This document shows positions 10,757 through 19,145 of a stretch of DNA of 24,000 bases, one piece after another. Position numbers and translations under genes: made by a program. The DNA comes from Aliamphritea hakodatensis (GTDB taxonomy: Bacteria; Pseudomonadota; Gammaproteobacteria; Pseudomonadales; Balneatricaceae), in the NCBI RefSeq assembly GCF_024347195.1, contig NZ_AP025281.1:4659695-4683694 (forward strand). Reading direction: 5' to 3'. Under the pieces are notes generated by a model. The model saw nothing but the letters and a program-made list of their open reading frames with translations. It was not told the DNA's origin and ran no database searches. Within the stretch, counting starts at the first letter, position 1, and every line of letters begins with the position of its first letter.

Positions 10757-10832
10757 TGGTGGGTTGTATAGGATTCGAACCTATGACCAATTGGTTAAAA
10801 GCCAACTGCTCTACCAACTGAGCTAACAACCC
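10757..10832 (-). tRNA. tRNA-Lys (anticodon UUU), copy 1
   Basis: The reverse complement folds as a cloverleaf: acceptor GGGTTGT/ACAACCC, D-stem GCTC/GAGC, anticodon loop CTTTTAA, T-arm ATAGG-TTCGAAT-CCTAT, encoded CCA. 76 nt. Confidence 0.97.
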
Positions 10833-10880
10833 ACGCTTGTACCTCTCCCCATACCACTTTTCTGAAGAACTCAGAAAAAG

Positions 10881-10956
10881 TGGTGGGTCGTATAGGATTC
10901 GAACCTATGACCAATTGGTTAAAAGCCAACTGCTCTACCAACTGAGCTAACGACCC
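10881..10956 (-). tRNA. tRNA-Lys (anticodon UUU), copy 2
   Basis: Identical to copy 1 except for a compensatory change at acceptor pair 5:68 (C:G instead of T:A). 76 nt with encoded CCA. Confidence 0.97.
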
Positions 10957-10960
10957 GTAG

Positions 10961-11036
10961 TGGCTCCTCGAGCTGGACTCGAACCAGCGACCAATAGATT
11001 AACAGTCTACTGCTCTACCAACTGAGCTATCGAGGA
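10961..11036 (-). tRNA. tRNA-Asn (anticodon GUU)
   Basis: Acceptor TCCTCGA/TCGAGGA, anticodon loop CTGTTAA, T-arm GCTGG-TTCGAGT-CCAGC, encoded CCA. Only 4 nt separate it from tRNA-Lys copy 2. Confidence 0.97.
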
Positions 11037-11056
11037 ACAACGTTTCTCACATTTAA

Positions 11057-11147
11057 TGGCGGAGGAGCAGGGATTCGAACCCTGGAAGGGCTATTAACCC
11101 TCGCCGGTTTTCAAGACCGGTGCTTTCAACCACTCAGCCACCCCTCC
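11057..11147 (-). tRNA. tRNA-Ser (anticodon UGA), class II with long variable arm
   Basis: 91 nt. The anticodon arm CCGGT-CTTGAAA-ACCGG is identical to E. coli serT as I remember it. Long variable arm GAGGGTTAATAGCCCTTC, T-arm CAGGG-TTCGAAT-CCCTG, encoded CCA. Confidence 0.96.
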
Positions 11148-12221: not shown

Positions 12222-12297
12222 CCGGTCTCAGTAAAACGTCCAGTGCCGCTTTGCGCGGCACCCTGCTAGACTCGGGCAAACCGTTTAGGAGAGCCTG

Positions 12298-13371
12298 ATG
12301 TCTGCATATATTATTGCCGCTGCCAAAACCACCGATGGGCAACCCGCCGGCGGCAGCCACACCCTTTCAGACTGTCAGACTGTTCAGGCCCGGCTCTCAG
12401 CTGCAGGCATCAGCATCCACCACCTGACAATAGACCCTCTGAGTACCGACTGGCACAGCCCGCTCGAACCCGGTCATTTCCGCAGTGGCGCAGCACCTGT
12501 AGAAGCACTTACCGAAGCCCTCTCCCTCCTGCAGACACCCGGCACGGCCGTTGTCATCAGCGGTACCGACCCCTTGCGCACCGGATACGAAAAAACCGAC
12601 CGGACGGCACGCATGGCGATCTACGGTACAGACTATACCCTGATCGACGCCTATACCGATCTCAGTAAAGCTTTTGCCCACCAGCACAGCTTCAGTGAGA
12701 CACAATTCCGGCAGTGTGCTCAGGCGTTATTCGACAACTACCTGCACACCTTTGCAGAACGGCATCCTGACGCACCTCAGCCCGGTGCAGCCTGGTTTAA
12801 GCCGGTGAGCGAACTGTTCCGCGGCGTCGATTGCGCCAACCCGGTACAGGATTTCAGCGGTCAGTTAATACTCTGTCACGCAGACACCGCAGATACCCTG
12901 GCGATCCCTCAGGCACAAAGAGTCGCGGTACGGGGCGCTAGCTGCATAACACTGCCGGCCGACGGTAAACCGGCCATCGCAGAGATTGTCCGTTACGGGC
13001 ACCTGCACAGCACCTTTCAGCAAGCCTGTCAGCAAGCCAGCATAGACTTCAGAGACGCTTTTGTTCATGGTCACGCTATTCTGGATGTTTACACCTGCTT
13101 CCCCGTGGTACCAATGGCCTTTCTGCTAACCACCGGATTTGTCAGTTCGCCGGATGCCCTGCCGCATTTTCTTGCTGAATATCCGGTGACCGTCAGTGGC
13201 GGCATGAATCTCGCTAAAGGCCCCTGGAACAACCCGGCCCTGAGCAGCCTCATTGACAGCTACCGGGTAATCACAGAAGGCCGCAGTCAGATTGCCGGCG
13301 TACACGGCAATGGTGGTCTGGGATATAAACAGGGGTTTGCTATCCTGACCCACGCGGACTATCCCGCATAA
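12298..13371 (+). CDS. thiolase-fold (acetyl-CoA acetyltransferase-like) protein of unknown function
   Basis: 357-aa ORF with AGGAGAG 6 nt upstream of the ATG. The C-terminal half resembles thiolase-like proteins (ILDVYTCFPVVPMAF, TVSGGMNLAKGPWNNPALSSLI, GVHGNGGLGYKQG). The N-terminus AYIIAAAKTT resembles the first thiolase strand. The product call is tentative. Confidence 0.55.
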   Translation: MSAYIIAAAKTTDGQPAGGSHTLSDCQTVQARLSAAGISIHHLTIDPLSTDWHSPLEPGHFRSGAAPVEALTEALSLLQTPGTAVVISGTDPLRTGYEKTDRTARMAIYGTDYTLIDAYTDLSKAFAHQHSFSETQFRQCAQALFDNYLHTFAERHPDAPQPGAAWFKPVSELFRGVDCANPVQDFSGQLILCHADTADTLAIPQAQRVAVRGASCITLPADGKPAIAEIVRYGHLHSTFQQACQQASIDFRDAFVHGHAILDVYTCFPVVPMAFLLTTGFVSSPDALPHFLAEYPVTVSGGMNLAKGPWNNPALSSLIDSYRVITEGRSQIAGVHGNGGLGYKQGFAILTHADYPA

Positions 13372-13511
13372 AGTTACCCACATATTCTGTGCATAAGCCT
13401 TGGAAAAAGATCTGCATAACCGCCATACCCTGCGGTTCCCAAGGCTCTCAGCCAGCGGACAGTTAATGATCAACGCCCCCTGTTAAGAAAATAATTTAAT
13501 TTTTATATATT

Positions 13512-13531
13512 ATTATTGATAATCATTATTA
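13512..13531 (+). promoter_or_regulatory. Fur box overlapping a sigma70 promoter
   Basis: ATTATTGATAATCATTATT (13512-13530) matches GATAATGATAATCATTATC at 15 of 19 positions. TGATAATCATTATTA (13517-13531) matches the 7-1-7 form TGATAATnATTATCA at 14 of 15. It overlaps the -35 TTGATA (13516-13521) and the 17-nt spacer before the -10 TAGTAT (13539-13544). An AT-rich UP-like tract lies at 13487-13515. Confidence 0.75.
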
Positions 13532-13550
13532 TTTGCATTAGTATCAATCC

Positions 13551-13704
13551 CGCTCGTAAGTGGTCGGCAAAGTACTCACCTCACCGATACTTTGTCATCG
13601 CAGGCGACGCTGATTTGGCCAGCGTCGCCTGCAAACTTACATGCAAGCTTTACAGGCTCTTGTCATAAGTATTTTTTCAGCGGGTGCTCACCCGCTGTTT
13701 TTTT
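13551..13704 (+). ncRNA. candidate Fur-regulated small RNA (about 154 nt; 5' end estimated from the -10)
   Basis: Bounded by the promoter/Fur box above and an intrinsic terminator. Stem-loop 1 at 13566-13596: 9 bp with a 13-nt loop CUCACCUCACCGA. Stem-loop 2 at 13600-13632: perfect 13-bp stem GCAGGCGACGCTG/CAGCGTCGCCTGC. An A/U-rich linker follows. There is no ORF with an RBS. Confidence 0.6.
13678..13704 (+). terminator. intrinsic terminator of the candidate sRNA
   Basis: CAGCGGGT / GCTC / ACCCGCTG followed by seven T (13698-13704). Confidence 0.85.
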
Positions 13705-13838
13705 ATCTGCCCTCAACTGAACATTCATACCGCCCACCCGGACACCCCATTTGCTGACATAAATCAGCACCGGCCAGCTGTATATAGCAGCAACCCTGAG
13801 CTACTATAGGCCGCATTTCAACCAGCCCGGTTTTCTTC

Positions 13839-17396: not shown

Positions 17397-19145
17397 TTAA
17401 CGGCGGCACTTAGCCCGTTTTTCTTCCAGACGCGCCATCAGCATGGCCATCTCATCACTCTGCCCACCGGCTGACTTAGCTTTTTTCGCCTGCCGCTTAG
17501 CTTTTTCTTCAGCCATCAGCTGCTTCAGACGCTGTTCCTTACCCACCGGATTTGCCGCAGAAACCGCCGCCTTTTCCGGCGGGTTTTTCGCCGCTGCACG
17601 GCGGCTGGCCTGCAGCGATGCTTTACGGGCAGCAACCTTAGCAATCAGCTTGGCCATTTCTGTTGTTTCAGCATCCTGATTTGCCAGCTGTTCAAGCAAT
17701 TTCTTTTCTGCTGCTGAAACAGGCTTCGGTGCCGGAGCAACAGGCGCTGCTTTAAAGGGTTCAGCCACTTCCGGGATAACGTCTGCAGACGCCGGTACCA
17801 CCTGAGTAACTGCCACGTCTGCCGCCGTCCGGGCAACCTCTGCTGCATTTGTAACAGCAAGCTGCCGGGGCTCAGCAACTTTTTCTGCCTCAGCTGCCTC
17901 AGCAATCCGCTGCCGGCGTTTCAGCGTCAGGGTTTTGCGCTTGCTGACCACTACAGGCTTACCGTTAGCATTGAAGCAATCACGGTTTACCTCAGCTTCA
18001 GATGCCTCTGCCTGAGGCGGTGTTTCCGGCGCCGCCTGTACGGTTAACGGAGCATCTGCCACAACGGTCTCAACCGGCATAACCTCAGCCGGGCGGACAG
18101 CTGCCGGAGCCGTTACGGTTTCCGGAGTAGCCACAGCAGCCGGAGAAACAACTGCCGGCTGAGGTATCGCCTGAACCGGTGCCGGTTCTGCTTTCACCGC
18201 GGGTTTAGCTTTGGCTGCAGGCTTCGCTTTTGCTGCTGTTTTCTTGGGCGGCTTCGCCCGGGAATCCAGCCGTGCTATCAGCGCAGCCATTTCAGCGGCT
18301 TCCGCCCGCTGTTTGGCCTGCCGCTCTTCCATACGGGCATCTTTTTCCTGCGCAATGGCTTCACGGATCTTTTTCTCTTTGGCGGCGGAATTCACCCGGC
18401 CAGTCGGCAAAGCCTCAGCCCCGTTCGGTACAGCTGCCACCGGGCTTTTTGCAGGTGCTTTCGCTTTGGCAACTTTCTTCGCCGCCGTTTTCTTTGGTTT
18501 CTTGCCACGGGCATCCATCCGGGCAATCAGCAGGGCCATTTCCCGGGCCGCGGCTTTCTCTTTGGCAACCTTTGCTTTGATGCGCTCATCCTGACGGGCA
18601 TCATAAGCTGCTTTTTCTGCTTTACGCCTGGCTGCCCACTCGGCATCCGACAAACGCGGTTTCTCAGCCGGTTCAGCCGGTTCAGCCGGCTTATCAGCAA
18701 CCTTTTCAGGAGACGGTGATTCAGGCTCGTCAGTGGTGTCCGCCGCTGAATCTTTTGCCGTAAACGGTATATCATCTACCAGCTCAGAGCCCTGTTCCTC
18801 AAGGTTCAGCAACGCATCACGGGTCAGGTCATCCTCAACGGCTTTTGGCTTAACCCTCCGGGCAGCCTTGGGCGCTTTCAGCTTCAGCCCCTGCAGACTG
18901 AGACCACCGGTTTCTTCCAGTGCCGCCTGCATCAGCTCACGCAACTCGGCAGTGTCTTCCGCAAGTGCCCATTCGCTGACTGCAAAACTGTCCATGCCAT
19001 GGTCACGGATATCGTCATACAGACGTGCTTCCACGCCCGCTTCAGCAGCTTTAATAATAACTTCCCAGCGCCGGTCAAGGTCTTCACGGCTGGTACCAAC
19101 ATATATCTGTTCAGTAATCGTATTGGTAATGGTAAAAACGATCAA
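17397..19145 (-). CDS. GIY-YIG (I-TevI-like) domain protein with a long Lys/Ala/Pro/Glu-rich repetitive C-terminal region
   Basis: 582 aa with a TTG start (GGAG 10 nt upstream; no in-frame ATG before residue 51). N-terminus IVFTITNTITEQIYVGTSREDLDRRWEVIIKAAEAG...LYDDIRDHGMDSFAV parallels I-TevI GIYQIKNTLNNKVYVGSAKDFEKRWKRHFKDLEKG...LQRSFNKHGNVFEC. The remainder is low-complexity with four EMAxLIA(R/K) modules. Confidence 0.8.
   Translation of the reverse strand: MIVFTITNTITEQIYVGTSREDLDRRWEVIIKAAEAGVEARLYDDIRDHGMDSFAVSEWALAEDTAELRELMQAALEETGGLSLQGLKLKAPKAARRVKPKAVEDDLTRDALLNLEEQGSELVDDIPFTAKDSAADTTDEPESPSPEKVADKPAEPAEPAEKPRLSDAEWAARRKAEKAAYDARQDERIKAKVAKEKAAAREMALLIARMDARGKKPKKTAAKKVAKAKAPAKSPVAAVPNGAEALPTGRVNSAAKEKKIREAIAQEKDARMEERQAKQRAEAAEMAALIARLDSRAKPPKKTAAKAKPAAKAKPAVKAEPAPVQAIPQPAVVSPAAVATPETVTAPAAVRPAEVMPVETVVADAPLTVQAAPETPPQAEASEAEVNRDCFNANGKPVVVSKRKTLTLKRRQRIAEAAEAEKVAEPRQLAVTNAAEVARTAADVAVTQVVPASADVIPEVAEPFKAAPVAPAPKPVSAAEKKLLEQLANQDAETTEMAKLIAKVAARKASLQASRRAAAKNPPEKAAVSAANPVGKEQRLKQLMAEEKAKRQAKKAKSAGGQSDEMAMLMARLEEKRAKCRR

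Follow-up and report, generated by a model that had tools for sequence, protein, structure and literature searches.

Bacteria control iron homeostasis after transcription chiefly through Fur-repressed small RNAs (sRNAs), which are known from few lineages. Because these sRNAs are unrelated in sequence, that of each lineage must be found afresh. The closest described systems are RyhB (RF00057) of Enterobacteria and Vibrio, and PrrF1 and PrrF2 (RF00444) of Pseudomonas, with ArrF of Azotobacter. The genes prrF1 and prrF2 of P. aeruginosa are presented as a tandem sRNA locus in two reports (PMC7948967, PMC2851614).

The window analyzed in this study is the whole stretch of 24,000 nucleotides of Aliamphritea hakodatensis DNA. 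Its sequence, read together with that of its relatives, makes it very probable that the window carries a genuine sRNA gene, which is transcribed independently, has a structured product, and is furnished with a Fur-type operator. The product is likely to be an iron-repressed, trans-acting, base-pairing sRNA that would work like RyhB and PrrF without being homologous to them. Because the element is conserved with compensating changes in two genera and matches no catalogued family, a new lineage-specific counterpart of these iron-sparing sRNAs is the most likely reading.

The predicted sRNA resembles PrrF in the Fur box over the promoter, in size (~110–150 nt), and in the C/U-rich single-stranded region ahead of the intrinsic terminator. 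Both also occur as tandem genes, with two in P. aeruginosa, four in one Amphritea locus, and one in the window; this is a likeness of layout and not evidence of homology. The hosts are related to those of PrrF; GTDB places the genus Amphritea in the Pseudomonadales. In contrast, the PrrF model has nothing that corresponds to the two hairpins that covary or to the invariant loops of the new sRNA. With RyhB, the new sRNA shares (predicted) Fur repression, a hairpin loop containing CUCAC as a seed, an A/U stretch, and a terminator, and it has a predicted iron-sparing role through occluded ribosome-binding sites (RBSs). It differs from RyhB in being longer and in having another long G+C-rich hairpin as well as a predicted closing helix. 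The sRNAs NrrF, HrrF, BrrF, FsrA/IsrR, IsaR1, and RusT belong to the same functional class, with an iron-repressed promoter and C/U-rich seeds at RBSs, but their Rfam models gave no match.

The locus and the predicted transcript

The intergenic gap is located at 13372–13838 (467 bp), from the stop codon of a 357-aa ORF to the start of a 743-aa ORF. The downstream ORF encodes a pyridine-nucleotide-disulfide oxidoreductase/SelD fusion, and its gene is called selD below. The upstream ORF is thiolase-like and showed weak NCBIfam similarity to acetyl-CoA acetyltransferases; no Pfam family was detected in it, and an exact-protein look-up returned no record. Within 13516–13704 (+), a promoter with a Fur box over its −35 and spacer is followed by two hairpins, an A/U-rich stretch, and an intrinsic terminator. 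The features are as follows.

13487–13515 (+): A/T-rich tract resembling an UP element, upstream of the −35, read directly
13512–13530 (no strand): predicted Fur box ATTATTGATAATCATTATT, 15/19 against GATAATGATAATCATTATC, overlapping the −35 and the spacer
13516–13544 (+): sigma-70-type promoter TTGATA-17 nt-TAGTAT from the promoter scan, with the −35 at 13516–13521 and the −10 at 13539–13544
13552–13704 (+): predicted sRNA transcript of ~153 nt, scoring 97.8 bits with the covariance model and conserved from the Fur box to the T-run
13552–13561 (+): conserved 5′ end GCUCGUAAGU, near-invariant as G[CU]UCGU[AU]AG
13566–13596 (+): stem-loop 1, with a 9-bp stem (13566–13574/13588–13596) and the 13-nt loop CUCACCUCACCGA (13575–13587)
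13600–13632 (+): stem-loop 2, with a perfect 13-bp G+C-rich stem (13600–13612/13620–13632) and the 7-nt loop AUUUGGC (13613–13619)
13653–13665 (+): C/U-rich motif CAGGCUCUUGUCA, a candidate second seed, marked by conservation
13666–13677 (+): A/U-rich stretch UAAGUAUUUUUU, a candidate Hfq site, unpaired in the folds and 5′ of the terminator
13678–13704 (+): intrinsic terminator from the terminator scan, with an 8-bp stem, a 4-nt loop, and T7; the hairpin is at 13678–13697

The original prediction had described a self-contained + strand unit in this 467-bp gap, and its elements were all found in the proposed order and orientation. The scans recovered both the promoter and the strong terminator. 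Stem-loop 1, with a loop proposed to be anti-Shine-Dalgarno-like, and the GC-rich stem-loop 2 are both present as described. The A/U-rich stretch is there too, and the sequence 5′ of the terminator is A/U-rich in all copies compared below. The near-consensus Fur box also held up. Its 7-1-7 core TGATAATCATTATTA (13517–13531) has one mismatch (14/15), and the box is the sole site with two mismatches or fewer in the 24 kb, for which shuffles gave an expectation of 0.06. At the sequence level, a predicted Fur-binding site thus overlaps the promoter, as is expected of an iron-sparing sRNA.

The sRNA probably starts at G13552, which is 8 nt past the −10 and opens the conserved block GCUCGUAAG. The sequence GUAAGU (13556–13561) can pair with ACUUAC (13635–13640), and this helix, P0, would close the 5′ domain. 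In the modeled minimum free energy (MFE) folds, P0 appears in most copies with differing partner sequences. Folded singly, the copies all gave the same layout, with a mean unpaired probability of 0.83–0.99 for loop 1, and the C/U-rich motif CAGGCUCUUGUCA is predicted to be approximately 50% unpaired in the ensemble. The MFE of the predicted RNA was −64.4 kcal/mol (z = −7.0 vs. dinucleotide shuffles). The opposite strand folds about equally well in A. hakodatensis (z = −6.2), so the strand is not given by the folding energy alone. The + strand was called from the orientation of the promoter and terminator and from the G·U pairs in the relatives. These make up 27 of the 250 pair cells, and pairing reached 94% on the + strand vs. 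86% on the − strand.

Rfam 15 was used to compare the locus with described RNA families. The original prediction had pointed to RyhB, PrrF, and other Fur-regulated sRNAs as the models to search, and at the gathering threshold the whole window gave four tRNAs alone, with no family for the sRNA. The best match at E ≤ 10, in a 511-nt interval, was PrrF RF00444 (21.9 bits, E = 0.2, vs. a gathering score of 90). The matching columns lie mainly in the terminator and in the Fur box/promoter, which is part of the PrrF model. The match did not recur for the Amphritea copies, since PrrF was not listed at E ≤ 1 for the whole of L008, L011, and L023 or at E ≤ 10 for the L011 interval (comparison loci carry L numbers). 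RyhB RF00057 was missing from the matches to the 511-nt interval even at E ≤ 10, and a blastn search (word size 11) of 5,426 complete E. coli genomes was negative at E ≤ 1; the dissimilarity to E. coli RyhB that had been noted earlier was therefore borne out. The 3′ part of the sRNA showed sub-threshold scores of 14–26 bits to ncS16 and anti-hemB of Burkholderia and to SorX/SorY of Rhodobacter, which cover only the CUCUUGU-type C/U-rich stretch and the terminator. The sub-threshold Rfam matches at E ≤ 10, for the window interval and the Amphritea loci, were rejected as being at chance level.

The blastn search of the PLSDB plasmids gave no match. The pattern CTCACCTCACCGN{20,30}GATTTGGCC had 8 matches in the JGI metagenome contigs, which were G+C-rich and unrelated and were rejected by the covariance model, and it had 0 matches in the viral contigs. 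Literature searches on sRNA or Fur in Amphritea, on PrrF or RyhB in the Oceanospirillales, and on the loop sequence found nothing relevant.

Conservation in Aliamphritea and Amphritea

The SelD-fusion protein of the window has 100% identity with the A. hakodatensis protein. The comparison loci were taken from the DNA around its homologues, and sRNA copies were sought there. Beyond the window, Aliamphritea and Amphritea yielded 11 copies, each of them 5′ of the selD-fusion gene. The family comparison comprised 12 copies from 9 loci of the two genera, including the copy of the window. The Aliamphritea-like loci L001, L004 (A. spongicola), and L005 carry the element upstream of selD and are near-identical inside it, with diverged flanks. 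Much more diverged copies are present in the Amphritea loci L008 (A. balenae), L010, L011, L021, and L023. The locus L023 (Amphritea MAG, GCA_025800245.1) holds four tandem copies at 316–1417, and every copy has a Fur-box promoter and a terminator to itself. In copies 1–3, the terminator hairpin differs from that of copy 4 at the same position. A 214-aa gene called at 590–1234 of L023 spans sRNA copies and is almost certainly spurious.

The conserved block begins at the Fur box/−35 and stops at the T-run of the terminator, and the flanks diverge. The 17-nt promoter spacing is kept in 12/12 copies. A −10 hexamer of the form TANNNT at this spacing is present in 11/12, and copy 1 of L023 has AATATT, with a 1-nt alignment gap. 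The 25 nt equivalent to the UP-like tract are A/T-rich in all relatives, and the sequence itself is unconserved. The Fur box lies at an identical offset in 12/12 copies, −4 from the start of the −35, and matches at 14–16 of 19 positions.

Inside the transcript, the stems vary, and four single-stranded blocks show little or no variation. These blocks are the 5′ GYUCGUWAG, loop 1, loop 2, and GCUCUUGU. The loop 1 sequence CUCACCUCACCG, which contains UCACCUC, is invariant in 12/12 copies, and the loop 2 block GAUUUGGCC is invariant across the copies. The motif GCUCUUGU ahead of the terminator is likewise invariant in 12/12, despite an unalignable insert of 0–100 nt upstream. The sRNA is approximately 150 nt long in Aliamphritea and 170–220 nt in Amphritea. 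The family range is therefore approximately 150–220 nt, because the Amphritea copies add unalignable hairpins of 40–100 nt between hairpin 2 and GCUCUUGU.

The alignment of the 87-column 5′ core showed covariation in two helices. Compensatory double changes were found in 15/23 stem pairs. Standard pairing was present in 94% of the cells, vs. 37–51% when the 3′ partners were slid by 1–3 columns, and 0/500 shuffles reached the observed values on all five measures. Helix 1 was 99% paired, with double changes in 5/10 pairs; helix 2 was paired in 90% of the cells, with double changes in 10/13 pairs. RNAalifold recovered both helices independently, with a covariation term of −5.7 kcal/mol. The terminator is present in every copy, with 5–8 T and a G+C-rich stem, and this stem was paired in 92% of the cells family-wide, with double changes in 3 pairs. 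Such a discrete conserved block with covariation in the relatives makes the sRNA feature far more than chance. With its promoter, terminator, covariation, and lack of a conserved ORF, the interval is a self-contained non-coding unit with a conserved structure. The original prediction had named conservation and covariation in relatives as a check, and both hairpins passed it around an invariant loop 1. Its suggestion of an unrecognised family or a lineage-specific analogue gains support from these covarying hairpins, the fixed Fur box, and the lack of an Rfam family.

The element is absent at L006/L007, where SelD is 74% identical. At L002, L003, L012, and L024, which have more distant fusions (SelD identity 50–56%), there was no sRNA or no intergenic space. 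Decayed remnants were found in two Amphritea loci, L009 (1508–2000) and L022 (1111–1500). Both loci have lost the Fur box and the −10, their stems have degenerated or been deleted, and their terminators carry mutations; the two blocks described below, with the DnaA boxes and upstream of selD, are intact. On this sequence pattern, the two remnants look like natural sRNA pseudogenes. The absence or decay of the gene indicates that it is dispensable or relocated in L006, L009, and L022, and this counts against the preferred reading.

Proposed mode of action and competing explanations

From the features above, we infer transcription, control by Fur and iron, dependence on Hfq, and the kind of target; the iron-sparing role is suggested by analogy with RyhB and PrrF. 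When iron is plentiful, Fur-Fe2+ on the −35 and spacer would block RNA polymerase. Under iron limitation, the sRNA would be made and would end at its own intrinsic terminator. The 5′ part of the RNA would form a closed domain containing two hairpins, of which hairpin 1 would present the invariant C/U-rich loop. The second C/U-rich motif GCUCUUGU, which may be a second seed, would follow with the A/U stretch and the poly-U tail. An A/U-rich stretch with a poly-U tail is the usual Hfq-binding module. Here, UAAGUAUUUUUU, the terminator hairpin, and U7 give the arrangement of an Hfq-dependent sRNA, and by analogy Hfq may bind at the A/U-rich stretch. Loop 1, and possibly the 3′ motif, would then pair antisense with GAGGUG-type RBSs in the mRNAs of dispensable iron-using proteins. 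This pairing would block translation and trigger mRNA decay.

The UCACCUC of loop 1 is the 7-nt core of the anti-Shine-Dalgarno sequence at the 16S rRNA 3′ end (GAUCACCUCCUUA). Because it contains UCACCUC, loop 1 should pair with GAGGUGA-type RBSs. When loop 1 was compared with the 15 translation-initiation regions of the window, none exceeded the background. As CAGGCUCU, the 3′ motif pairs with the RBS of the thiolase-like 357-aa ORF at −16.5 kcal/mol, with an 8-nt perfect match. The initiation region of this ORF is at 12238–12300, its RBS and start are GGAGAGCCUGAUG, and the complementary 8 nt are AGAGCCUG. The Aliamphritea loci retain the match, which carries a single change in A. spongicola, and the Amphritea locus L010 lacks it. 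The thiolase-like gene was rejected as a target, as the complementarity is approximately at chance level, not significant, and lost in Amphritea. Duplex folding of the full-length sRNA with the selD initiation region was uninformative, with long loops allowed.

The trans-acting reading has to be weighed against the position of the gene. Each of the 12 copies sits immediately 5′ of the selD-fusion gene and has the orientation of that gene. A cis-acting element would show this arrangement too, which makes a selD leader the main rival. Under that explanation, which we regard as quite improbable, the Fur-box promoter and read-through of the terminator would control the mRNA of the SelD fusion (and msrAB), and the short RNA would be a by-product. 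In its favor, just 84–135 nt separate the terminator from the ATG. However, each of the four tandem units of L023 has its own promoter and strong terminator, the terminator of every copy has 5–8 T and a G+C-rich stem, and inspection of the sequences by eye did not reveal a conserved anti-terminator pairing. Moreover, the selD-upstream block with its −10-like TACTAT/TAATAT survives in L009 and L022 despite the loss of the sRNA promoter and stems, and is also present in L006, which lacks the sRNA. This block outlives the decayed sRNA gene, which argues against a plain selD 5′ UTR; the original prediction had likewise set its transcript apart from such a UTR. Vertical inheritance in two sister genera explains the constant synteny equally well. 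A wider proposal for the same arrangement earns little credence from us. It supposes an independently evolved, Fur-controlled riboregulator whose invariant loop mimics the 16S anti-Shine-Dalgarno heptamer and competes broadly for strong RBSs instead of acting on a few iron-protein mRNAs, with the dose set by 1–4 tandem copies; the gene would stay beside selD and a DARS-like cluster of DnaA boxes because terminator read-through or local pairing links iron status with selenium metabolism.

Other explanations accept a gene at this locus and differ in its control or product. A Fur-controlled sRNA may act as a decoy or sponge that sequesters a protein or RNA, instead of pairing antisense. Three invariant single-stranded motifs, including AUUUGGC, which is not C/U-rich, exceed the need of a single seed, and the copy number of 1–4 is like that of titrating RNAs. 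Repeated GGA or other known protein-binding motifs were not found in it, though, and the C/U-rich seed, A/U stretch, and terminator poly-U form the standard layout of an Hfq-type base-pairing sRNA. The weak sub-threshold matches of the 3′ part are also solely to base-pairing-type sRNAs with CUCUUGU seeds, and we consider a decoy unlikely. It is very doubtful that the Fur box is merely an A/T-rich palindromic promoter and that a real sRNA responds to another metalloregulator or a stress signal. The context is A/T-rich, and some copies match at only 12–13/15 in the 7-1-7 form. Against this, every copy reaches 14–16/19 at the fixed offset, the A. balenae box (L008) is a perfect 7-1-7 site, a single such site occurs in 24 kb where 0.06 was expected, and the box sequence is conserved while the flanking A/T tract is not. 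Least credible is a small protein, which we hold to be extremely improbable. ORFs of 38–50 aa exist mechanically at 13516–13668, 13592–13720, or 13641–13757. They lack an RBS, as the original prediction had observed for the interval, and they are also unconserved. No ORF is common to the 12 copies, and one of them is free of ORFs of at least 15 aa. All reading frames are interrupted between copies by indels, some of 2 nt and others of tens of nt (40–100 nt), and the substitutions track base pairs rather than codons.

With the Fur-repressed, base-pairing sRNA as the preferred reading, Aliamphritea and Amphritea (marine Oceanospirillaceae) gain a well-supported candidate iron sRNA. The family would be an addition to Rfam 15, where it is absent, and the understanding of this class of regulators is unchanged. 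The comparison also provides a covariance model, seed candidates for mutagenesis, copy-number variants (0, 1, and 4), and natural pseudogenes as a resource.

Flanking blocks and other features of the window

A conserved block is located just upstream of the selD-fusion start at 13775–13838, and equivalents are present in all loci. It holds the −10-like GCTACTATAG, which is GCTAATATATAGCG in Amphritea, and is probably selD's own promoter. The −10-like element was not called by a simple promoter scan.

A conserved cluster of DnaA boxes at 13374–13419 precedes the sRNA promoter by approximately 100 nt and consists of TTACCCACA (+), the 5-bp spacer TATTC, TGTGCATAA (−), a degenerate box, and TCTGCATAA. 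The cluster was also found at L005 2034–2079, L006 2327–2372, L008 2079–2114, L009 1585–1607, L010 1553–1575, L011 1553–1575, L021 1055–1077, and L022 1200–1222. It is kept in all Aliamphritea/Amphritea loci, including those without the sRNA, whatever the upstream gene. The core of E. coli DARS1, AGTTATCCACTATTCCTGTGGATAACCATGTGTATTA (PMC6868365), has the same layout, with two opposed boxes 5 bp apart and a further box in the box II orientation. The cluster may be a DnaA-reactivating sequence or a site under DnaA control.

Elsewhere in the window, a 582-aa ORF without a Pfam family is located at 17397–19145 (−). Its first ~55 residues weakly match TIGR01453, a GIY-YIG "group I intron endonuclease" domain, with a score (22.9 bits) under the cut-off. 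A tRNA cluster at 10757–11147 (−) comprises Ser(UGA), Asn(GUU), Lys(UUU), and Lys(UUU), and two trypsin-like protease genes and an sbmA/bacA-like transporter gene lie near it.
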